From positions 1-47,489 of IMG/VR virus record IMGVR_UViG_3300035002_000018: a stretch of 47,489 nt of DNA; one strand, 5' to 3'. Positions 3,602 to 38,267 of this stretch are shown piece by piece. The translations under genes and the position numbers were made by a program. Origin of the DNA: a virus (taxonomy: Duplodnaviria; Caudoviricetes). The notes under the pieces were generated by a model, which saw only the letters and a list, made by a program, of their open reading frames with translations, did not search any database and was not told the origin of the DNA. The stretch's first letter is position 1; every line of letters starts with the position of its first letter.

Positions 3602-3922
3602 ATGATAACTAACGATCAGATAACATTAATGAGAAAGGCGGTAGCCGCCTATGATCTCGGCAACCAAAGCAAAGGAGAGGAAAAGAAAACTTTTGAATCC
3701 TTGCTTAAAAATACGGTTGAAAGTCTAAAACATTCCTTTCAGAAAGAACCGGAACTAACTAATTACGATGCCTGGCAGTTAGAGAAACACGGCAATATAC
3801 TCCCTTCACCTGTTGTATTGCCTTCTGGAGAGATTGAGAACGGTCACGAAGGGATTCAACGTCATGCCGAATGGGTAGAGCAACAGGCTGCGCAACAATT
3901 ACACGAATACGAAAAATACTAA
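3602..3922 (+). CDS. Hypothetical protein
   Basis: ORF in early operon. Confidence 0.7.
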   Translation: MITNDQITLMRKAVAAYDLGNQSKGEEKKTFESLLKNTVESLKHSFQKEPELTNYDAWQLEKHGNILPSPVVLPSGEIENGHEGIQRHAEWVEQQAAQQLHEYEKY

Positions 3923-3924
3923 TC

Positions 3925-4593
3925 ATGAATAAGAGCGATTCAATCGTAAACATTTCTAAAGCTATTGTAGCCGTAATGAACGAGGTAAAGGGTATTGAGA
4001 AGTCAATGACTGTTGGTAGTGGTACAATGTCTTACAAAGGTGTCCCGGACAAAGAAGTAAAAAAGATAGTTGGGGATTCAATGGCTAAGAACGGCCTGTC
4101 AATTCTTCCAATCGGTGTAACTCCGTTGACAAAAGTCGAACGTTGGGAAGAAACATACAACGGGCAGGTAAAGCAAAAGCAGTCAGTATTTACCGAAGTA
4201 ACAACTGATTATTTGTTGATACATACCAGCGGGGAGTATATCCAGTTATCAGGATATGGTCACGGTGTAGATACACAGGACAAAGGAGCTGGGAAAGCAA
4301 CAACCTATGCTCTTAAATATACCCTGCTGTATGCCTTCCTGGTTCCAACCGGAAAGATTGACGATGCTGATATGATTCATTCAGATTCTAATGAAGTACC
4401 TCAAAAAAAGCAGCAAAAAAGAATCCTACCCGCTGAAGATTTCCAAAGAATGATAGAAGCAATAAAATCAGGCAAAGTAGCCATAAGTGATCCTGTGATA
4501 AACAGTTTCAGTTATGATACTGATCAGTATACAAAACTTCAATCCGTAATCAATGAAATTAAAAATAAAGCGAAAGAACCTGCTCTCTCGTAA
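3925..4593 (+). CDS. erf: ERF-family single-strand annealing recombinase
   Basis: G.G.D..DKGAGKATTYALKY.L...F.VPTG..DD signature; start at MNKSDSI. Confidence 0.85.
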   Translation: MNKSDSIVNISKAIVAVMNEVKGIEKSMTVGSGTMSYKGVPDKEVKKIVGDSMAKNGLSILPIGVTPLTKVERWEETYNGQVKQKQSVFTEVTTDYLLIHTSGEYIQLSGYGHGVDTQDKGAGKATTYALKYTLLYAFLVPTGKIDDADMIHSDSNEVPQKKQQKRILPAEDFQRMIEAIKSGKVAISDPVINSFSYDTDQYTKLQSVINEIKNKAKEPALS

Positions 4594-10630: not shown

Positions 10631-12126
10631 TGCAACCACAGAACCAAAATAAAGACCGGGCCGTAAGGAGGAAACCATCACTGGAGCTTTCCACCATGGT
10701 GTATGGTAAAGTGCCACCACAGGCAAAGGAGCTGGAAGAGGCTATCCTTGGCGGTATGATGCTGGAAAAGGGTGCGGTGGACCGGGCTATCGAATTCATT
10801 AAACCGGAAAGTTTTTACGTTGAAGCCCACCAGCTGATTTTTAAAGCCATACTGGACCTGCACGGTAAAGGATGGCCCATTGATATCCTGACAGTAACCG
10901 AACTGCTGAGGGAGAAAGGTGAACTGGAAATGGTCGGCGGTCCGTACTATGTAACGAAGCTCACCAATGCCGTTGTTTCTTCTGCGAACATCGAGTTTCA
11001 CAGCAAGATCATTGCTCAGTATCACATGAAACGGGAACTGATCAGGATTGGTGGGGAACTGATTGCTGGTGGTTACGAGGATATGACCGATGTGCAGGAC
11101 CTGCTGGACGAGCATGAGAAAAGTATGACGATGATCACCACACAGCGATCTGGTGACAACGTGCAGGGCATTGATGCCGGCCTGGTGAAGATGATCCAGC
11201 GGGTAGAAAGTCTTCGGATGAGTAAGAAGGATATTACCGGTGTTACCAGCGGCTTCCCATCACTTGACCGGATAACATACGGTTGGCAGAATACAGACCT
11301 GATCATCCTGGCAGCAAGACCGGCAGTAGGTAAAACCGCTTTTGCCTTGAACATTGCACGGAATGCAGCCAAAGCAGCAGAGCCGACACCAGTAGCTTTT
11401 TTCTCCCTTGAAATGAGTACAGAACAATTAGTGATGAGGATCGGTGCGGCCGAGAGTGAAATATGGCTTGAGAAAATTGCAAGAGGAAAGATGGAAGAGT
11501 TTGAAATGAAACAGCTGTATACAAAAGGTGTTCAAGCACTGGCCAAGGCCCCCATATTTATTGACGATACTCCCGCCCTGAACATTTTTGAACTCCGGGC
11601 CAAATGCCGCAGGCTGAAAAACAAACACGATATCGGACTGGTGATCATTGACTACCTGCAGTTGATGAGAGGTGTAAATGAATCGAGAGGAAACCGGGAG
11701 CAGGAGATCAGCCAGATATCGAGAAACCTGAAAGGCCTGGCCAAGGAATTGAACATTCCAATTATTGCACTGAGCCAGTTGAGTAGGAAAGTAGAAGACC
11801 GGAAGGGAGATAAAATGCCCCAGCTGAGTGACCTCCGGGAATCCGGCGCCATCGAACAGGATGCAGATATGGTAATGTTCATGTATCGCCCGGAATATTA
11901 TGATCAGAACTCCAATGAAATGGGAGAAAGCACCAAAGGACTCACATTAATAGACATCGCAAAACACAGGAACGGTGTATTGGCCAGGGGAAATGAAGCG
12001 GTGAAGCTGAGAGCCTTATTGCATATCCAAAAATTCGTGGAATGGCAGGATGATATCGTTACCTCATTAAAACCTATTGGTGGGAACTGGAGGCCGGTTG
12101 CACAAGACGACGACGAAGCTTTTTAA
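10630..12126 (+). CDS. dnaB: Replicative DNA helicase
   Basis: AARPAVGKT Walker A, FSLEM, IIDYLQL, SQLSR, LSDLRESGAIEQDAD, AKHRNG. Confidence 0.97.
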   Translation: MQPQNQNKDRAVRRKPSLELSTMVYGKVPPQAKELEEAILGGMMLEKGAVDRAIEFIKPESFYVEAHQLIFKAILDLHGKGWPIDILTVTELLREKGELEMVGGPYYVTKLTNAVVSSANIEFHSKIIAQYHMKRELIRIGGELIAGGYEDMTDVQDLLDEHEKSMTMITTQRSGDNVQGIDAGLVKMIQRVESLRMSKKDITGVTSGFPSLDRITYGWQNTDLIILAARPAVGKTAFALNIARNAAKAAEPTPVAFFSLEMSTEQLVMRIGAAESEIWLEKIARGKMEEFEMKQLYTKGVQALAKAPIFIDDTPALNIFELRAKCRRLKNKHDIGLVIIDYLQLMRGVNESRGNREQEISQISRNLKGLAKELNIPIIALSQLSRKVEDRKGDKMPQLSDLRESGAIEQDADMVMFMYRPEYYDQNSNEMGESTKGLTLIDIAKHRNGVLARGNEAVKLRALLHIQKFVEWQDDIVTSLKPIGGNWRPVAQDDDEAF

Positions 12127-12142
12127 ACCTAAAAATATAACG

Positions 12143-12343
12143 ATGAAAAAAGTAAAAGTGTATATCAAAAAGTCCAGGAACGGGCAGTTCTATTTTACAA
12201 TCCATGCAGCCAATGGTAAAAAGCTTTGCCATTCAGAAACCTATACCCGGAAAGACAGTTGCCGGGAGGGCTTTGTGGTGATGAGGTTGGGCCTCAACTG
12301 TCACGATCTTGAAGTAATTGATACAACAGAAAAAAAGAAATGA
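12143..12343 (+). CDS. DUF1508 (YegP-like) protein
   Basis: GQFYFTIHAANGKKLCHSETYTRKDSC motif. Confidence 0.8.
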   Translation: MKKVKVYIKKSRNGQFYFTIHAANGKKLCHSETYTRKDSCREGFVVMRLGLNCHDLEVIDTTEKKK

Positions 12344-12453
12344 GCTGGTCCGAAAAACATATTAAAGACTTGCAGTCCCGGCGAGTGGGTGAAGAAATTT
12401 CGGGTTTGAGTGCGAATCCCGATGGGGCCGCAAAGAAAGACACAGGAGTTTGA
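12340..12453 (+). pseudogene. Probable 5' stub of a phage gene (MSWSEKHIKDL...) fused to the cassette array
   Basis: ATGA-coupled start; after ~10 codons it runs into cassette leader sequence. Confidence 0.4.
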
Positions 12454-12506
12454 AAAACGGGTGGATTTCGTTCCCTAAGAACCCCAAAAAAGAACAAAGA
12501 GAAAAT

Positions 12507-13061
12507 ATGAACTTATTTGATTTAAATGTACATACGGTAAAAAATGGGCATGAAAAATTTGCTACTGACTTTCAGACAAAGCCTGAAGTTTGTAAGTATA
12601 TGGTATCTCTGTTACCAACAGGGGTAAGGACAGTATTAGAGCCAACACCGGGCATTGGGAATATTGTTGATGCCTTAGCTGGTTATGATGTAACAGCTCC
12701 AAAAGACTTTTTTTTATTGGATAAGAAAAGATTTGATGCAGTTGTAATGAACCCTCCATTTTCTTCTAAGTACGCAAATATGGAAAATGCGCCTGCAGGA
12801 ATAAATAAACACAGGATGAGGTTGGGGTACCATATACTTACTGAGTGTATGGAAATGTCTGATATCATAATTGCTTTAATGCCGTGGTTTACTATTTCTG
12901 ACAGCGATGTAAGGTTGAGATATTTAAAAAAATTTGGTTTAAAATCACTAACAGCCTTGCCAAGAAAAACATTTGAGTATGCAAGGATTCAGACTGTTGT
13001 GATAGAATTACAGAAAGGGTATAAGAGTAAAACGATTTTTGAAGTATATGACTGTCTCTAA
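12507..13061 (+). CDS. Small N6-adenine/N4-cytosine DNA methyltransferase (cassette 1 cargo)
   Basis: FQTKPEV, VLEPTPGIGN (SAM-binding), MNPPF catalytic motif. Confidence 0.85.
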   Translation: MNLFDLNVHTVKNGHEKFATDFQTKPEVCKYMVSLLPTGVRTVLEPTPGIGNIVDALAGYDVTAPKDFFLLDKKRFDAVVMNPPFSSKYANMENAPAGINKHRMRLGYHILTECMEMSDIIIALMPWFTISDSDVRLRYLKKFGLKSLTALPRKTFEYARIQTVVIELQKGYKSKTIFEVYDCL

Positions 13062-13099
13062 TCTCTTTGTTCTTTGGGGTTCTTAGGGATTGCGGTCCC

Positions 13100-13198
13100 A
13101 TCGGTCTCAGGCGTTTGCGCCGGACTGCGATAGATGCGAAGCAGATAGTAAAGCAGGACGGTGCAACTTTTGGGTTTGTCTGGCGCAAAAGCCATGTT
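13100..13198 (+). other. attC-like site 1 (ATC...GTT)
   Basis: Stem GGCGTTTGCGCCGGAC (13110-13125) / GTCTGGCGCAAAAGCC (13178-13193). Confidence 0.75.
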
Positions 13199-13240
13199 CA
13201 CGGCAGTGCCAGCTTTTAATGAAATTAAAAACTATAAGAT

Positions 13241-13504
13241 ATGAACATTAACAGGGAATTGCTAATGGATTTTTTTAAATATTACTGTGACACAACTGAT
13301 GACGAATATCTCGGTAGAGAAGAAGTCATTGTTGATGACTATATCCTATTTAAAAAATATCCATGTGGGATGCCAAACCCAAAAGAGCCTGAGACCGTTC
13401 ACGGCAATGAGGCGGAAAAAGTAGTTTGCAAATGTAATAACCCACATTTATATCAAGACGCTGGGTTTAATTGGAGATGTTCATTATGTGGCAACCCGTT
13501 TTAA
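13241..13504 (+). CDS. Hypothetical protein with C-terminal Zn-ribbon (cassette 2 cargo)
   Basis: CKC..PH...WRCSLCG. Confidence 0.7.
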   Translation: MNINRELLMDFFKYYCDTTDDEYLGREEVIVDDYILFKKYPCGMPNPKEPETVHGNEAEKVVCKCNNPHLYQDAGFNWRCSLCGNPF

Positions 13505-13561
13505 TTGCAAACGGTTTACGCCGTCCGCCGCTTTCCTGGCTGTTGCGGCGGCATTGCCGTG

Positions 13562-13681
13562 AACGGATAGGGCTTGCAGAAGTTGGGGCATTTCTGCAAT
13601 CGGTTCAGCCCATAGGTGCAGCTTGGATTTAGGTGAAGATGAGTTTTAGGGTCAAGCCCCAATTTTTGCAAACCCAATGTT
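13562..13681 (+). other. attC-like site 2 (AAC...GTT)
   Basis: Stem GGGCTTGCAGAAGTTGGGGC (13570-13589) / GCCCCAATTTTTGCAAACCC (13656-13675). Confidence 0.85.
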
Positions 13682-13802
13682 CTATGCAGTGCCATCATGC
13701 TACTTCCTGTCGCTGAATAGAATTAATAAAGCTGGGTGTATTTGTTTTTTGTGCTGCGGAGCTTCTTAAAAATGTATTTTCTAACAATTAAATAAAAATA
13801 AA

Positions 13803-14195
13803 ATGGCAAATGAAACAAGTAAACAAAGGTTAGCAAACCTTATTCAAAGTTATGAGCAGGTAGTTAAATCCGCTCAATCATTGTACGATGATGCTGAATT
13901 AAAAAGTTGGGCTATTGACCGCTCACTTGAAGCACAAGGAAAAATAACAGAAATAAAGAAAAAGCTGAAAGATACTTTTTCAATTGATTATGATGCTGAC
14001 ACTGCAAAAACAAAGGTAATAAAAGAAGGTAGCAGCGTTGAAGTTTTGGTTAATCACATGGACGGCATGAAAGGCTCGACAGCCACAATCAAAAGCTATT
14101 CATTGCCTGCTAATATTTCCGACATTACGATGAAGGACGGCATGAAAATGAATAACCATAAGTGGTTAACCAACGATGAGGTTAAACTAAAGTAA
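13803..14195 (+). CDS. DUF1541 (YdhK-like) domain protein (cassette 3 cargo)
   Basis: GSSVEVLVNHMDGMKGSTATI ... NHKWLTNDEV resembles the DUF1541 repeat. Confidence 0.7.
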   Translation: MANETSKQRLANLIQSYEQVVKSAQSLYDDAELKSWAIDRSLEAQGKITEIKKKLKDTFSIDYDADTAKTKVIKEGSSVEVLVNHMDGMKGSTATIKSYSLPANISDITMKDGMKMNNHKWLTNDEVKLK

Positions 14196-14220
14196 TTATT
14201 CACTTTTAAATTCAAAAAAA

Positions 14221-14292
14221 ATGGGAAAAATGAAACCTGGTATGCCAATGCCAAAACCGAAACCAAAGCCGAAACCAAAGCCGAAAAAGTAA
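14221..14292 (+). CDS. 23-aa Pro-Lys repeat micropeptide MGKMKPGMPMPKPKPKPKPKPKK
   Basis: A-rich leader; varied Pro/Lys codons; followed by a hairpin. Confidence 0.45.
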   Translation: MGKMKPGMPMPKPKPKPKPKPKK

Positions 14293-14298
14293 GGCTTT

Positions 14299-14333
14299 AA
14301 TGTAAGCCGGATGATTATTGTCTGGCTTACATT
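14299..14333 (+). terminator. Stem-loop (possible terminator) inside cassette 3
   Basis: AATGTAAGCCGGA / TCTGGCTTACATT. Confidence 0.5.
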
Positions 14334-14420
14334 TCATTAAAGAACGAAAAGTGTGGCGTTGGCAAAAAAACAAATACATGATATGTCGCTCAATAGAATT
14401 ACAGGTGCGGCATTGCATAG

Positions 14421-14524
14421 AACGGCCCGGAAATTGCCGAAGGCCGCCCCGTTCACTGCGAAGCAGAGAGTAAAGGGGAGGACTGAGGCCGAAACAAACT
14501 GGCGGCTTTTGGCAATTTTATGTA
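14421..14524 (+). other. attC-like site 3 (AAC...GTA)
   Basis: Stem AAATTGCCGAAGGCCGCC (14431-14448) / GGCGGCTTTTGGCAATTT (14501-14518). Confidence 0.8.
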
Positions 14525-14664
14525 GGCCGCCGTCCGGCTGGTGGGTAAGGGTTTGTTGAGTTTTCCGGGCCGTAGGGGCCGCCAAGTAACGCCGGGAGTT
14601 TGAAGAATGAAAACGGAGGAGTTACGTTCCTCGCAACCAAATTGTAAACATTAAAAGAAAAATT

Positions 14665-14976
14665 ATGTGCGAAGAAATCAAAAATGCAACACAAGCATTT
14701 AAACAGCATGACGCCTGTGATGAATGTGGTAAAAGAACAGACGGGTTAATGACCTGCACATATTCACATGATGGCAGCGAAACAAAACTGTGCCCAGATT
14801 GCATTGAGGGTAGCGGTTTTTGTTTACGATGCGGATATTATAGTGCAGGTATGAGCAGTTTTGATTTTTCCGATATGCCCGGATATTGCTCTGAGTGTAG
14901 GGATGAAATAAAGGCAGAAGAAGATGACGACCCTGATTTTGATGCCATATACAATCCGTGGGAATATCCGGATTAA
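14665..14976 (+). CDS. Cys-rich zinc-finger protein with acidic tail (cassette 4 cargo)
   Basis: Four CxxC motifs (CDEC, CPDC, CLRC, CSEC). Confidence 0.75.
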   Translation: MCEEIKNATQAFKQHDACDECGKRTDGLMTCTYSHDGSETKLCPDCIEGSGFCLRCGYYSAGMSSFDFSDMPGYCSECRDEIKAEEDDDPDFDAIYNPWEYPD

Positions 14977-15015
14977 TTTTTCTTGCTTCTATTTGGTTGC
15001 GAGGATGGCGGTCCC

Positions 15016-15328
15016 TACGAAAACGCATTTACGCCGTAGGGCGAATTGAAGATAAAATAAAAACATATTCTTATGCGCAGTCATATTCTATTGTTGAGAG
15101 ATAATTTAAAAGCTCAGTTAGAAAGAGCATATCAGGATGTTGAAAAATACGAATCAACCGAAGACCCTGATGGAGAAGTAGTTTACAACGAAGGTAAAGC
15201 GCAGGGCAAAGCCAATGCTCTTTCTAACGTTATTCAAAAGCTGAATTTTATTTTATCGGCAAATGAGTCCGAAGGCGGAGATAAAGATGGCAAGTAGTGA
15301 ATTGCCCTATGGCGTTAAATGCAGTGTT
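15016..15328 (+). other. attC-like site 4 (TAC...GTT) with a gene in its loop
   Basis: Stem GCATTTACGCCGTAGGGCGAATT (15025-15047) / AATTGCCCTATGGCGTTAAATGC (15300-15322). Confidence 0.75.
15073..15297 (+). CDS. 74-aa hypothetical protein (cassette 5 cargo)
   Basis: A-rich leader; ORF fills the hairpin loop. Confidence 0.65.
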   Translation: MRSHILLLRDNLKAQLERAYQDVEKYESTEDPDGEVVYNEGKAQGKANALSNVIQKLNFILSANESEGGDKDGK

Positions 15329-15473
15329 GTAGGCCGTCCCGACCTATCACGCCATACGCAGCCATCTTTATCAGCAGGGCAAATGCGTTTTCGTTGTCGG
15401 CCATTTTAGAGCCTGTGGACGCATTAGTCCGAGGTACGAGGACGGCGGACACTGCACGGGAGGGATGGCCGAC

Positions 15474-15658
15474 AACGGATTTCGCATTGCCGATGTTTGA
15501 GAGTAGTAAAAAATAAACAATATGAAAGATAATTTGATTCCACTTGTTACAGCTTCATTAATGGAGTGTGTAGTTATATTGATTCTTGTAATTGTTTATT
15601 TTTTACGAGAACGAAAACAGCGGTGAAAAAGACGGTCAAATAGCGGCAAAGCGATGAT
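15474..15658 (+). other. attC-like site 5 (AAC...GAT) with a small gene in its loop
   Basis: Stem GCATTGCCGATGTTTGA (15484-15500) / TCAAATAGCGGCAAAGC (15636-15652). Confidence 0.7.
15522..15626 (+). CDS. 34-aa single-TM peptide MKDNLIPLVTASLMECVVILILVIVYFLRERKQR (cassette 6 cargo)
   Basis: Read by hand; A-rich leader, hydrophobic core, basic C-terminus. Confidence 0.5.
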   Translation: MKDNLIPLVTASLMECVVILILVIVYFLRERKQR

Positions 15659-15825
15659 ATACGAAGTTTGCTGCCGCTGTGAACGACTCCGTCTTTTTCT
15701 TGCGAAATCCGATATACAAAATTTAGGTAGTGGGAGTTGCCCGGTCTAAAAAGTCGAAAATAGATAGACTTCCGGGCAACGAAGCTACCGTGTGTGATGG
15801 TCTTGTGCGGCAGCAAATTTTGTAT

Positions 15826-15866
15826 ATCATATACTTATGCGAACCATAGTTTAAAATCAACAACTT
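15826..15866 (-). other. Candidate attI-like primary insertion site next to the recombinase start
   Basis: Last core ATC (15826-15828) is followed by non-palindromic sequence, then the recombinase ATG 38 bp later. Confidence 0.55.
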
Positions 15867-16703
15867 ATGATTGAGCATTATCAGGCTGAAATAAGAAAGA
15901 AACTGAACCAGCAATGGAGGATGGATCGCAAATCAATAGTGACCATCAAAGGCTATAACTATGCCCTGGACCTGCTGCTGGAGAAACTGCCGGTTTACTT
16001 TGACGAGTACAACACGGACGACCTGGTGGCTTATTGCCTAACTATTCCTGGCATCAACAAACGGGACCTGCAGATCACCATGATAAGGGCGGTGTACCGG
16101 ATCATGCATAATACAAACCTGGACTGGAAGCTATTCCCATTCATCAAACGAAAGAAAAAGATCCAGCCACGGTTCAATACACAGGAGGTACAGGCATTGA
16201 TCAACGCTACGGATAATATCGGACACAAGCTGATAATGCTCACTCAATTTGCAGCCGGCCTCCGGGTGGGTGAAGTGGTGATCTTGAAACGGAAGGATTT
16301 GTTTAAAGAAGAAGGGTTCTTATTCATCGATGGGGAAGGCATCAGTAACGACCGGTTTGCACCATTGCCTGATAATGTGTTCAGGATGCTGGATGAATTC
16401 AGTAAAGACAAAAAGGAAAATGCTTTTATCTGGACGGGTCAATACGGCGGACACCTAAGCACCAGGTCAGTTCAGCAGATCATCAACCAGTGCAAAGCAA
16501 AGGCAGGTATCAGTCACACAGCTAACAGTCATGGTCTCCGCAGAGGCTATGCTACCGAATCGGTTCGTGGCGGAGCTCATATGCTTGCTCTCCGGGATAT
16601 CCTAGGGCACTCAGATATAAGAACCACCCAGATATATACCGGTACCAGCCATGAATTTTTGAAAGAACAATTTAATCCGGCAGCTGAACTGAAAGTTGCA
16701 TGA
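15867..16703 (+). CDS. Tyrosine recombinase (XerD/integron-integrase-like, no IntI-specific insertion)
   Basis: AGLRVGEV, HGLRR, LGHSDIRTTQIY; the usual KG..DR loop reads GEGISNDR. Confidence 0.92.
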   Translation: MIEHYQAEIRKKLNQQWRMDRKSIVTIKGYNYALDLLLEKLPVYFDEYNTDDLVAYCLTIPGINKRDLQITMIRAVYRIMHNTNLDWKLFPFIKRKKKIQPRFNTQEVQALINATDNIGHKLIMLTQFAAGLRVGEVVILKRKDLFKEEGFLFIDGEGISNDRFAPLPDNVFRMLDEFSKDKKENAFIWTGQYGGHLSTRSVQQIINQCKAKAGISHTANSHGLRRGYATESVRGGAHMLALRDILGHSDIRTTQIYTGTSHEFLKEQFNPAAELKVA

Positions 16704-33547: not shown

Positions 33548-35004
33548 TGGCACATATACCTTTCAAAGCAACAGTTTCAGGATATACAGGAAAGTTACTT
33601 TTCCGGTGGGTAGAAGCCTCTGCGCCTTTAGCAGAGGTAGGCAGGTCCGCTGCTTTAGACTTCCCTTATGATGACGCTTACGATATTTTAGATGTAAATC
33701 CGGTTGTTCATATAGTTGAATTTTGGAGATCTGATGACGGAATTGCTCTTGATGAATTAATTCAGGATTGGAGTGTAGATGCTTCTAAAAGTGAGGAAGT
33801 AATATTTATACGAAATGAGTATAAGGTGGGCCGTGGGAATACTGAAGGAACAGAGGGTAACGGTGATTACTGGATTGATCCATCTAATGAAGATACAGAG
33901 CTAATTGATGAACGGATTGATGGCTATACTAAGTCAGAAATGATTGTCCATGAAGCTGGTTACGGTGACAGATCAGTAGATGAATATGAGTTAAGAACTG
34001 GAGGAGGTATTGTACTTCAGGATAGTAATACTTTTAACCAAGATACAAGATGGTTTATTACTATTATAAAAAAGATATTAGTAACAATCCCATCAACAAC
34101 TACAAATCAAAATCAATACGCAGGTGTTTCGGTAGTAACAGCTGACAGGGATATTTATATAGATTCCACAGATAACCTTTACAATAAACTGGTAATTGCC
34201 AATAAAGCAGGGGCGGTATTAACACTAAATTTCCCTGATCTGGCTTTGATTCCTAACCATACCAGGATCACATTCAATACGCATACAGGCTCATACAACT
34301 ACCTGAAATTACAGCTTGACACAGGCGACACAATCAACTACTGTGGTCAGGCAAGGAATGTAATTTATATCCCCAAATGTGAAATAGTTTCTTTCTACTT
34401 CTTTGATGGTGCAGGTTATGTTACTGACCCGCCTCTGAGAGCTTTATTGAGAGGTACAGTAGTTGGGGATATGGACAGCAGCCGGCATACTGACACAGGT
34501 GCCTACTTACTAGCAGACGAAAGCACAGGAGTATTAACCAAAGCGAATTACCCGGGATTATATGAATTCATTGAAAATTTACCGGCTTCTCATTTTGTTG
34601 CTTTGGGAACAGGATCGGGTCAATGGTCAGAAAGCACAACAATCAATGGAGTAACAGTTTACCCTTATAAATCAAAGTATGGTATTGATACGATTTCTGA
34701 AACATGCAGGGTTCCGCATTTAAAGAATTTAGGGGCAAGATTTATTAATACCGGAGAGTATCCCGGACGTTATCAACACGATGCAGTGGGGCCTTTTGAT
34801 TTAGAAGTAAGAACAGGATCGGGGGGGAGTAGTACAAATCCATTAAATCAAGGTGGAGGAGCTATTGATTGCGGCTTTTCGGGGATGGATAGCTTGGGTT
34901 CGTGGCTTTCTAATGGTTCTTATGGCTCAGAAAAATTAATACGATTTACGGGGACAGAAACAATAATGAAAAATTACGGTGAAATACCTTTTATAGTACT
35001 ATGA
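33547..35004 (+). CDS. Tail fibre/baseplate protein with collar-like C-terminus
   Basis: YPGLY...RVPHL..RF......GRYQHD pattern like tail-collar domains. Confidence 0.6.
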   Translation: MAHIPFKATVSGYTGKLLFRWVEASAPLAEVGRSAALDFPYDDAYDILDVNPVVHIVEFWRSDDGIALDELIQDWSVDASKSEEVIFIRNEYKVGRGNTEGTEGNGDYWIDPSNEDTELIDERIDGYTKSEMIVHEAGYGDRSVDEYELRTGGGIVLQDSNTFNQDTRWFITIIKKILVTIPSTTTNQNQYAGVSVVTADRDIYIDSTDNLYNKLVIANKAGAVLTLNFPDLALIPNHTRITFNTHTGSYNYLKLQLDTGDTINYCGQARNVIYIPKCEIVSFYFFDGAGYVTDPPLRALLRGTVVGDMDSSRHTDTGAYLLADESTGVLTKANYPGLYEFIENLPASHFVALGTGSGQWSESTTINGVTVYPYKSKYGIDTISETCRVPHLKNLGARFINTGEYPGRYQHDAVGPFDLEVRTGSGGSSTNPLNQGGGAIDCGFSGMDSLGSWLSNGSYGSEKLIRFTGTETIMKNYGEIPFIVL

Positions 35005-38000
35005 TAAACATAAAAAAGGGGTTCCGGGATAACTACCTGGCCCCCTTCTTAACTATTTTGCTGTTTGCAACTTCAGTAGTAAGTAATGCGCAAGTAAAGC
35101 AGAATTACCCGCAGTATGGCGGCACATGGAATAGATTGTATTTAAAAGATACAGGTGCTTTCAGATTACCAACTACTATTCTAGGCGTTAAAGACGCAAA
35201 TGCCGGTCTTGACACCGCTCAGTTGAGGTACGATAAAGCCGATTCATCAGTAAAAGTATATACCGGTTCCCAATGGCGTACAATAGGATCGGGGACAGGC
35301 GGCATAGGCACTGATAACGCCAACGTAGGTTCAGGATTTCGCTTAGTAAAGCCAGGCACCCAGGAAATTAAGACCTTGTTTGCGGGCTTTGGAGTTATCC
35401 GGGATAGTACTACCAATACAAATGGGATCACTGATAAGATAGATTCAACAACCGTAGGTACCAAGGCCTATTCTCTTTCTCTTTATGATATTCTCAACGC
35501 TACAAAATTAGCTGCAAGCGACACCGCAGGCAAATGGGTCGGTAATATTTGGATTAGCGGTGGCAACCTATATATGCGTATCAATGGTACCTCAACCAAT
35601 TTGGGTGCAGTGGGTGGCAGTGGAGGTTCACCAGGTGGGAATAACACCAATCTTCAATTCCTACGAAACGGTGCATTTACAGGTTCGGATTCACTGAACT
35701 GGACCGCTTCAGGTCTTGAATGGAAGGGAATGCTGATACAGAAAAATAGTGCGGGTACTGAACAGATGCGAATCTTCAGCGACAACCAGGTAAATACCTT
35801 TATCGGTTATCAATCAGGTTTGGTCAACAACTTTGCTGCAGGAGGAACAGATAACACCGGTGTCGGATATGAAACTCTCATCAGTAACACCACTGGTACT
35901 TTAAACACCGCAGTCGGGAAAAGAGCATTGATCACCGTTAGTACCGGGTCAAATAATAGTGTGGTGGGTGCTGGCTCTTTCCAAAAAACGACAGGCAGCA
36001 ACAACGTAGGCCTTGGATTCCATTCCGGGTTTGAAAATACAAGTGGCCAGCGTAATTCATTTATGGGTACTCTCGCCGGGCAGAACAAAACCACCGGTGA
36101 TGACAACGTGCTGGTAGGCTATCAAACAGGTGGTAATGCTTCAGGGGCTTTCAATAATGTGACAGCGGTAGGTACACAGGCATTGATACAGTCAACAGGT
36201 AATAACAATACAGCCATTGGTTATCAATCTATGTACAGTAATACTACCGGTACGAATAACACTGCCTTGGGTTATGCTACTGGCTACGGACAAACCGGCA
36301 GTAGTAATGTGCTGATCGGTTACCTGGTAGGCTTAAATGCCAGCACCCGGAGCAACAGGTTGATGATCGATAACGCAAACACCGACAACCCGCTTATAGA
36401 TGGAGATTTTAATGCAGATACCTTACGGATCAATGGTAAGTTATACATCTCTACAACAGATAGTAAAGTACCTGCTGATACTGCCAATTACGTTCCGGCC
36501 TGGATTCATAAAACCACAGGTGAAGTTGCAAAATCAACTTTTCATTACCAGAGTGCGGGCGGTGGCGGAACTCCAGGAGGCAGCAATACACAATTTCAGT
36601 ATAACAACAGTGGCGCATTTGGAGGAACTACAATGGGTTATAATAACAGCACAGGAGCTGTAACCTTAACCGGATCATCAAACACCTCGCAGTTTACTAT
36701 TAAAGCCAATTCAACGCAGTCCAATTCAAATCCTTTACTCCGGTTGCAGAATAGTTCAGGCACTGATCTTCTATGGATGCACTCCGATAATGCGGTCAAT
36801 ACGTTTGTTGGTGTAAGTTCAGGAACAGCGAACGATTTTGCGGGGGGCGGTACGGATAACACAGGATATGGATACGAGACACTAAGCAGCAATACAACAG
36901 GATCATTGAATACGGCCATTGGTAAAAGGGCCATGATCATGAACGTAACTGGTGCCGGTAACAGTGCAGTAGGTGCCGGAGCACTCCAGAAGACAACCGG
37001 AAGTAACAATGTGGGGATTGGGTATCACTCAGGTTTGGAAAATACAAGTGGTGGAAAGAATACGGCAATAGGAACACTGGCATTATCCAACCAAACAACC
37101 GGGTCCGAAAATACAGTGGTGGGCTATCAGGCTGCCGGAAACGCAACCGGGGCATTTAGTAATGTGACCGCTGTAGGTACGCAGAGCTTAATTCAATCAA
37201 CAGGTAACAATAATACCGCAGTTGGATATCAGACTTTGTACAGCAACACGACAGGCACCAATAATACCGCTATTGGGTATGCGGCCGGTTACGGGCAAAC
37301 AGGAAGCGGAAATGTTACAATGGGTTACTTAGTTGGATTAAATGCCAGTACCAGGAGTAATCGCCTGATGATAGACAATGCGAATACTGACAGGCCTTTG
37401 ATTGATGGAGATTTTGCAGCCGATACGCTGATGATTAATGGTACAATGTATATCAGAACAACGGTAAATAAAGTACCTGCTGATACTTCAAGCTATAAGC
37501 CGGTTTGGATCAATACAACCACAGGAGAATTGGCTAAATCCACCTTTCATTACCAAGCTCCAACTCCAACTATTCAGCAGGTGTTGACGGCCGGTTCCAG
37601 TTTTTCTACAAGCCATGTAATAGATGCTGGAACGAACGATTTTGAAATGTTTAATGCAAACTCAATTGAGTTAAATTCAGATATCAGAGCACAGATTTCA
37701 GCAGACCAAAACGTTTTTCAAGCCGTTCCAGATTCAACAACTTCATCAAGAAAGATAGTATATACAAGTAATATCAACGGTTCTCTCACAACCCCCAATT
37801 CATTAGTTACAAGGTCATTAATGGATAGTATTTATAAGTCACCACTTGCCAATGTAACTGATGTGGGCAACGTAGGAACAGGAGTTGACGACCTGATGAG
37901 TTATACAATACCAGCTGGCAGACTGGCATCTGATGGCGAATTCGTAGAGTTCACTGCCGTTGTCACCTTCGCAGCAAATGCCAATAATAAAACAGTACGT

Positions 38001-38267
38001 GTAGTGTATGGCAGCACTGAAGTATATAACAGCTCAGCGCAACCGCAGAACGCAGGAACTATGGTGATCAGAGGAACGATTATCAGAACAGGCGCAGCTA
38101 CCCAGGACGTTGATATCAGTGTATCAACTGATGGTGCATTATTCACCAACCTGTCAAAGTACACTGCCACCACCGAAACACTTTCCGGGGCAACAACATT
38201 GAAGCTCACCGGTGAGGCGACCAGCAACAACGACATTCTTCAAAAATCATTACGTGTAAAATATTAA
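35001..38267 (+). CDS. Large fibre/adhesin-like protein with signal peptide and duplicated NTAxG beta-roll blocks
   Basis: ~14-residue repeats (NTAVG/NTAIGY); signal ...ATSVVSNA|Q. Confidence 0.75.
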   Translation: MINIKKGFRDNYLAPFLTILLFATSVVSNAQVKQNYPQYGGTWNRLYLKDTGAFRLPTTILGVKDANAGLDTAQLRYDKADSSVKVYTGSQWRTIGSGTGGIGTDNANVGSGFRLVKPGTQEIKTLFAGFGVIRDSTTNTNGITDKIDSTTVGTKAYSLSLYDILNATKLAASDTAGKWVGNIWISGGNLYMRINGTSTNLGAVGGSGGSPGGNNTNLQFLRNGAFTGSDSLNWTASGLEWKGMLIQKNSAGTEQMRIFSDNQVNTFIGYQSGLVNNFAAGGTDNTGVGYETLISNTTGTLNTAVGKRALITVSTGSNNSVVGAGSFQKTTGSNNVGLGFHSGFENTSGQRNSFMGTLAGQNKTTGDDNVLVGYQTGGNASGAFNNVTAVGTQALIQSTGNNNTAIGYQSMYSNTTGTNNTALGYATGYGQTGSSNVLIGYLVGLNASTRSNRLMIDNANTDNPLIDGDFNADTLRINGKLYISTTDSKVPADTANYVPAWIHKTTGEVAKSTFHYQSAGGGGTPGGSNTQFQYNNSGAFGGTTMGYNNSTGAVTLTGSSNTSQFTIKANSTQSNSNPLLRLQNSSGTDLLWMHSDNAVNTFVGVSSGTANDFAGGGTDNTGYGYETLSSNTTGSLNTAIGKRAMIMNVTGAGNSAVGAGALQKTTGSNNVGIGYHSGLENTSGGKNTAIGTLALSNQTTGSENTVVGYQAAGNATGAFSNVTAVGTQSLIQSTGNNNTAVGYQTLYSNTTGTNNTAIGYAAGYGQTGSGNVTMGYLVGLNASTRSNRLMIDNANTDRPLIDGDFAADTLMINGTMYIRTTVNKVPADTSSYKPVWINTTTGELAKSTFHYQAPTPTIQQVLTAGSSFSTSHVIDAGTNDFEMFNANSIELNSDIRAQISADQNVFQAVPDSTTSSRKIVYTSNINGSLTTPNSLVTRSLMDSIYKSPLANVTDVGNVGTGVDDLMSYTIPAGRLASDGEFVEFTAVVTFAANANNKTVRVVYGSTEVYNSSAQPQNAGTMVIRGTIIRTGAATQDVDISVSTDGALFTNLSKYTATTETLSGATTLKLTGEATSNNDILQKSLRVKY
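35622..37556 (+). repeat. Intragenic tandem duplication (~0.95 kb x2)
   Basis: Both blocks run GG.PGG.NT..Q...SDN.VNTF.G...NASTRSNRLMIDNANTD.PLIDGDF...AKSTFHYQ. Confidence 0.85.

Follow-up and report, generated by a model that had tools for sequence, protein, structure and literature searches.

The 23-nt sequence at positions 13387 to 13409 of the window, the whole stretch of 47,489 nucleotides analysed here, is a perfect complement of the joined ends of the cassette in which it lies (hereafter the anti-junction), and is at the same time read in frame as the linker of a predicted 87-residue protein. It is probably the constant middle part of a mobile cassette with two slots, which would move by integron-like recombination of folded single-stranded DNA. 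The arrangement is real and unusual, a new form of integron-like cassette in which two exchangeable protein modules are joined by a linker that is both coding and self-pairing.

The window is a provirus record that displays genes for a repressor, an ERF annealing protein, a replication initiator, DnaB, a terminase and a portal protein, as read from 28 scanned open reading frames (ORFs) out of the 93 listed at 80 residues or more. The host is presumably a member of the Bacteroidota, judging from resemblance and from leaders rich in A/T. Six small units form an array between the DnaB and terminase genes, and the gene of a 278-residue tyrosine recombinase comes after them. The relevant features are as follows.

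3871..4593, + strand: single-strand annealing protein (ERF family) encoded in this prophage, a candidate for homology-driven linker swaps
12420..13101, + strand: remaining part of cassette 1, c4 family, with an N6-methyltransferase cargo
13102..13563, + strand: cassette 2, a mobile unit of 462 nt
13564..14422, + strand: cassette 3, simple type with the first core (B1) only and a DUF1541-like gene
14423..15017, + strand: cassette 4, anti-junction at 14562-14584 (one G.T pair), gene in slot 2
15018..15475, + strand: cassette 5, perfect 24-nt anti-junction at 15381-15404, gene inside the attC-like loop
15476..15827, + strand: cassette 6, perfect 24-nt anti-junction at 15701-15724
15828-15866: attI candidate
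15867..16703, + strand: 278-residue Xer-like tyrosine recombinase (PF00589, E 9e-24) adjoining the array, the candidate enzyme

The right half of the cassette 1 anti-junction (12420-12433) matches the ATC core of that cassette, for which no left end was found, and cassette 3 contains no anti-junction. A scan for promoters and terminators was uninformative, its promoter part returning fewer hits than shuffled sequences. Short ATG-initiated ORFs of 37, 48/65 and 31 residues overlap the anti-junctions of cassettes 1, 5 and 6, respectively, which makes the non-coding status given to the other units in the preliminary description provisional; the first (12340-12453) crosses the cassette 1 anti-junction with a start that overlaps the upstream stop, a possible second overprint. 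In cassette 5, helix x (15280-15291) lies within the final codons of a 74-residue ORF (15073-15297). A perfect 14-bp inverted repeat (12592-12605 / 12828-12841) is located inside the methyltransferase gene of cassette 1, and cargo genes appear to fold too. Away from the array, positions 35954-37388 contain a direct repeat with 1005-nt spacing and 71-72% identity inside a 1088-residue ORF (35001-38267), probably a duplicated tail-protein domain.

The scaffold of cassette 2 comprises three conserved blocks around two variable slots, arranged as follows.

13102..13210, + strand: left scaffold block, conserved, with an attC-like arm
13102-13112, + strand: left end L, in the left block
13159-13166, + strand: helix y, in the left block
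13167-13178, + strand: helix x, in the left block
13196, + strand: GTT of the first core B1, in the left block
13211..13374, + strand: slot 1 (approximate limits), an A/T-rich leader and N-terminal module, where relatives carry unrelated DNA
13241..13504, + strand: 87-residue ORF, made of slot-1 module, linker and slot-2 module
13374..13385, + strand: x*, the 12-bp perfect partner of x, coding (P-N-P-K)
13375..13429, + strand: central block, the conserved in-frame linker PKEPE[T/A]VHGNEAEK
13387..13409, + strand: anti-junction B2, pairing perfectly over 23 nt with the junction of cassette 2, in-frame PETVHGN
13424..13516, + strand: slot 2 (approximate limits), a C-terminal CxxC module with short complementary ends GTT...AAC
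13507..13565, + strand: right scaffold block, conserved, with the right end R at 13552-13563

Positions 13387-13397 are the reverse complement of 13102-13112 and positions 13395-13409 that of 13552-13566, giving 23 Watson-Crick pairs out of 23 between the anti-junction and the junction of cassette 13102-13563. The same nucleotides encode (E)PETVHGN(E) of the ORF 13241-13504, and a perfect anti-junction in frame inside this ORF, as originally proposed, is thus borne out. With the ends fixed by loci outside the window, the probability of a chance match is ~6e-12 (~420 places x 4^-23, calculated by hand), and chance as the source of the 23-mer match is already refuted. A scan of the whole + strand revealed three matches of 23-24 nt, every one of them inside the array, against 16 nt for the best match elsewhere. 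From the minus-strand control blocks of a separate comparison, one that overlapped the array was left out. Each of the four window cassettes with a whole anti-junction matches its own ends (4/4), and each does so with unrelated sequence. The spacing of 50-67 nt after the first GWW core, previously noted for the other units, was recovered at 50, 67 and 55 nt in cassettes 4, 5 and 6, respectively, while the core-to-core distance from the first GWW core of cassette 2 is 201 nt. In two outside loci the scan found no anti-junction (L009) or, in the rest of the contig, only that of cassette 2 (L002), indicating that many cassettes lack one.

A degenerate pattern for the linker peptide that left 10 third positions free, run against metagenome DNA, retrieved five matches, namely the window's own contig and two near-identical haplotype pairs of the cassette 2 scaffold (L002/L005 and L003/L004). 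All five carry identical bases at the free third positions; because the copies share recent ancestry, this synonymous-site identity is by itself weak evidence. The left block of cassette 2 is present in these four outside loci, and the right block where the contig extends, with different flanks and with unrelated DNA in both slots. Every DNA copy that keeps the linker carries the left end, and also the right end wherever the contig reaches it, such that among these copies the peptide does not occur regardless of flanking sites, the outcome that would have refuted the preliminary description. A single match in a genome collection (L006) uses different codons, lacks the scaffold and was set aside as a chance match. 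Two Logan contigs repeat the scaffold: X8 with blocks matching 13102-13210, 13375-13429 and 13507-13565, and X12 with a left block matching 13098-13208 and the central block matching 13375-13429. The slots hold other letters (slot 1, 136 in X8 and 122 in X12; slot 2, 78 in X8). X12 was flagged as probably DNA and carries no evidence of expression, and X7 and X14 do not cover cassette 2.

Other units of the array also occur elsewhere. Cassette 3 is found whole with different flanks in X3, and cassette 4 is found in X8 (14413-15019) and at a joint in X4 (14641-14989), with relatives at L007 and L008. Thus, cassettes 2, 3 and 4 have different flanks at the same ends, as discrete units moving between exact sites. 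The cores AAC, ATC and TAC occur, and the RYYYAAC box consensus is partly kept. The crossover is placed on either side of the C in the AAC/ATC core, next to the integron A|C position, and is limited to this extent by the right core of cassette 6, which reads ATC-A. A mirror parsing, in which units run from anti-junction to anti-junction, is formally symmetric and was rejected, the relatives breaking at the outer ends. Scans of viral contigs with the 87-residue protein, the recombinase (single and aligned), the linker patterns, the left block and P0020 returned none, the sole matches being two loci found through the motif of cassettes 1 and 4; BLAST against phages and plasmids gave no DNA match, and no circle or excision joint was present among the contigs of seven runs. 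L007 and L008 have a common conserved array-start sequence just upstream of their c4-family cassette; cassette 1 of the window, also of the c4 family, heads its array. On the minus strand of L002, simple-cassette ORFs (1311-1571 and 1647-2261) start in the hairpin loop and run through the B1 core, suggesting that genes overprinting sites are common in this system.

Whether the linker co-varies with each cassette's own ends, the check suggested in the preliminary description, was addressed between and within scaffold families. From one family to another, every anti-junction keeps to the ends of its own cassette. Among c4-family cassettes, L008 displays 11 of 11 pairs with three compensatory changes relative to cassette 4 of the window, and a right end that fits its own anti-junction poorly; L007 pairs at only 6 of 11 left-end positions. 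Within the cassette 2 family, L003 pairs at 23 of 23 positions and L002/L005 at 22 of 23, with one uncompensated mismatch. The linker protein P0060, whose left end reads R-P-Q (R-S-Q in the window) and whose linker reads E-V-V, implies, from its translation, that the T-A pair at 13105/13394 has become C-G, a compensatory change. The sole common linker change, T/A (30/17 of 48 proteins), is an A-to-G substitution that keeps a G.T or G-C pair. Pairing of x with x* is 12/12 in the window, 9/12 in L002, 10/12 in L003 and 11/12 in L004, and the encoded residues change. Selection at the nucleic-acid level, which had been proposed as one of two alternatives from the perfect match, is supported by the own-end matching of the four cassettes and by the compensatory changes in L008 and P0060.

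A search with the single 87-residue sequence revealed four homologs that are alike in the linker only. A profile search extended these to 48 proteins, and an exhaustive search, which returned 38, added six, giving 54 linker proteins, for few of which DNA context is at hand. In this set, the linker PKEPE[T/A]VHGNEAEK has 35 unrelated families on its N-terminal side and about 38-41 on its C-terminal side, the latter mostly CxxC modules resembling zinc fingers, and these are paired in 51 combinations. The reassortment is stable over score thresholds of 50-90 (null maxima 44-47). Proteins with the same N-terminal part have a common C-terminal part in 3 of 34 pairs, and those with the same C-terminal part a common N-terminal part in 3 of 23-27 pairs. 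In particular, P0032 and P0033 are identical over their N-terminal part (36/36) and match at 3 of 26 C-terminal residues, and P0043 and P0054 are identical over their C-terminal part (28/28) and match at 5 of 42 N-terminal residues. Some combinations occur on many contigs (P0016 on 31, P0041 on 20, P0051 on 16); assembly chimeras at the common 55-nt block could inflate some combinations, not the family numbers. No four-way reciprocal module set was found (0 cycles among 54 proteins), and crossover at the linker is therefore indistinguishable from independent slot replacement.

A CxxC motif is present in 43 of the 54 C-terminal parts, a few being C2H2-like or free of cysteine. The in-frame GTT that opens both the anti-junction and slot 2 encodes Val in 48/48 and 44/54 proteins, respectively. 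The window protein has no Pfam, PHROG or NCBIfam match, and the earlier terms "helical N-terminus" and "Zn-ribbon" are motif-level readings; among the linker homologs, Pfam gave sub-cut-off zinc-finger matches in 5 of 53. ESM Atlas matches score below 0.9 and serve as leads only, and a weak gam-like PHROG match in 3 of 54, which spans the linker, was not trusted. An in-frame ATG-initiated ORF enters the linker in all three unrelated slot-1 DNA cargos (p = 0.001-0.002 each), making translation of the fused ORF likely. The proposal that the ORF grew across scaffold sequence agrees with the mixing of modules around a common linker in 54 proteins, but its "de novo" part goes too far: the modules fall into families that differ by conservative substitutions, which points to module shuffling. 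Both readings offered in the preliminary description, constraint at the DNA level and assembly of the ORF across the scaffold, are supported and mutually compatible.

Cassettes 2, 4, 5 and 6 display a common design in unrelated sequences, with the order left end, helix x, B1 pairing imperfectly with both ends, x*, anti-junction and right end. The + strand has two mutually exclusive predicted folds, an attC-like hairpin through B1 and an anti-junction fold in which the anti-junction pairs with both ends and x with x*, the latter being predicted as more stable. The lowest-energy DNA circle fold uses the anti-junction in 4/4 cassettes. Structure z scores lie between -6 and -12 relative to 25 shuffled sequences, for a slice offset by one base from the unit as finally delimited. 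When the anti-junction was blocked, the circle folds gave the B1 hairpin, of which cassette 4 regained just the left arm. In 10/10 comparisons the + strand is predicted to form the more stable B1 helices, with 13 G.T pairs against one on the minus strand. The B1 hairpin contains an unpaired spacer and single mismatches, with no clear bulges.

The recombinase scores best among NCBIfam models with a XerA-like one (145.7 bits, cut-off 220), and reaches 64.7 bits, in two stretches, with the integron integrase model TIGR02249 (cut-off 265). BLAST returned distant matches below 60% identity, about 22-33% among the best 30 of 315. The R-HxxR-H-Y residues are invariant in eight aligned homologs. Tyrosine recombinases usually have a catalytic lysine at the site that is held here by a family-invariant DGEGI.NDR (residues 155-162), with R, HxxR, H and Y kept. 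The candidate link between recombinase and array rests on adjacency; together with the core and the strand bias, this makes it likely that the enzyme acts on the B1 hairpin of single-stranded DNA. A 98%-complete phage (G002; L008/L009) has a cassette array with a c4-family cassette and contains no PF00589 gene and no tyrosine recombinase, suggesting that the enzyme may act in trans. In the proposed mechanism, the neighbouring recombinase would excise and insert entire cassettes via the B1 fold, at either A|C or C|G, the anti-junction fold would lock the junction, damping excision or stabilising the circle, and swaps at the linker would be either homology-driven at the 55-nt block, by ERF, or recombinase-driven at the GTT core. 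As the linker is held by pairing and is stop-free in one frame, any exchange there would yield an in-frame hybrid protein, and since the gene of cassette 2 runs through the fixed block, exchanges there join modules in frame. The integron-like cassette therefore likely doubles as a means by which new hybrid proteins are put together in nature.

The full extension of this scheme, a recombinase-driven combinatorial protein library in which a two-slot scaffold, a guide serving as both linker and exchange site, nested cassettes and a bistable single-stranded DNA mobility switch act together to produce dozens of hybrid zinc-finger proteins, is put forward tentatively. A related and doubtful proposal is that the linker is a dedicated site for protein shuffling, in which the recombinase would cut slot 2 at its GTT...AAC ends and the anti-junction at its GTT core for programmed exchange of modules. 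The in-frame GTT that starts both elements, and slot cargos whose complementary ends differ between copies, are in keeping with such a site. Its products, on the other hand, would be indistinguishable from what homologous recombination gives. Every observed move of a whole unit uses the outer ends, and the anti-junction forms a perfect duplex without the unpaired features that, in the accessible part of PMC7439510, attC sites need. In run X4, a homolog of the cassette 5 gene (29 differences in 203 nt, 15053-15255) lies inside the cassette 6 scaffold (15503/15607), with complementary extra letters on both sides, this cargo thus moving between unrelated scaffolds. The presence of this gene in an unrelated scaffold is not readily explained by shared flanking homology and speaks for a second level at which cargo moves in a structure-directed way.

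Alternatively, the anti-junction may serve mobility only, the ORFs being weakly functional read-through products that ERF-type recombination reshuffles and whose fusion is unselected. The low information content of the linker, the absence of a family match for the window protein, the early stop in slot 2 of L002/L005 and the ERF gene in the prophage lend this account some weight, leaving it conceivable and still rather unlikely. It fits poorly with the entry of slot-1 ORFs into the same frame in 3/3 DNA cargos and with in-frame CxxC/C2H2 slot-2 fingers in 43/54 proteins, though for the latter the protein search selects for frame.

It is improbable that the two folds act in the transcript, in processing, as a translational switch or as a circularisation guide, with ribosome passage setting the fold. 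The folding strand is the sense strand, the switch helices are inside the ORF and predicted RNA folds give the same helices, all as expected of an RNA element, but the units move as DNA with exact ends and most sister anti-junctions have no convincing ORF. Rfam gave no match at E <= 1 in 12000-16000, and hence no known structured RNA family. GNA triloops have DNA-specific stability. Mini-hairpins with such loops number eight on the + strand and one on the minus strand (mean 2.8, maximum 9 in 500 shuffles), and 7 versus 1 in L002, whereas GNRA/UUCG hairpins number 0 on the + strand; the enrichment is a modest hint that may point to DNA rather than RNA. An artefact of chance complementarity or assembly chimeras, for which the metagenomic origin of the assemblies and the repeated 55-nt block could speak, is very improbable given the chance value of ~6e-12, the recurrence of the design in four unrelated cassettes, the inability of chimerism to create 35 and 38-41 unrelated module families, and the several combinations found on many contigs.

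The preferred reading, a mobile cassette with a translated, self-pairing centre, may be compared with known systems. In integrons, attC is located downstream of the gene and the recombined strand is antisense to it. In contrast, the hairpin described here precedes or encloses the gene, and its folding strand is the gene-sense one. The recombinase falls below the IntI cut-off and scores higher with the XerA-like model, the outer arms are 14-22 bp long and the cores vary (ATC/GAT, TAC/GTA). Further departures from integrons are the second, perfect anti-junction with its x:x* helix and the internal slots with a translated linker. In phage mosaicism, short conserved linker or boundary blocks allow homologous recombination to swap unrelated modules; here the block differs in being inside a gene, in frame and complementary to the ends of its own element. 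In IS110 bridge RNAs and IS200/IS605 guides, an element-internal sequence pairs with the element's own junction, whereas cassette 2 has a continuous complement, of the 23-24 nt seen in the array, beside a tyrosine recombinase. The 28 scanned ORFs, to which the long + strand ORFs of the array belong, encode no DEDD or HUH transposase.

The AAC/GTT core and the crossover at or next to A|C appear partly integron-like, the integron crossover being placed between A and C in the accessible part of PMC7439510. The array beside a tyrosine recombinase, the predicted strand-biased hairpin and the methyltransferase cargo also resemble integron cassettes and attC sites; phage CALINs and attC clusters in phages, including a Polaribacter phage, are known (PMC9892861, in the portion available). 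Fused integron cassettes, as described in the available portion of PMC8876359, arise through attC loss and are then fixed, one giving a bifunctional protein. They are likewise hybrid coding units within cassette arrays, but the structured block of cassette 2 is intact, conserved, translated and reused with dozens of partners. The accessible sections of a review that lists integrons in Bacteroidota contain no anti-junction cassette design (PMC8618304), and no description of anti-junction cassettes or of natural in-frame module shuffling was found in the literature searched, most subscription papers being outside its scope. An artificial parallel exists: attC sites were engineered as peptide linkers with IntI1 and proposed for combinatorial module shuffling, according to the accessible part of PMC7439510. 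Cassette 2 similarly displays a recombination-site structure overprinted on a protein linker, and differs in being natural and in having a perfect anti-junction overprinted there instead of a canonical attC. Integrons shuffle whole genes, and the shuffling of protein parts through a translated recombination structure has so far been engineered. Cassette 2 suggests a concrete way in which the numerous small orphan zinc-finger ORFs of phages may come about, and it has a bearing on the origin of cassettes and of new genes; were the recombinase itself to perform the swaps, it would represent a ready-made, structure-directed tool for domain shuffling.
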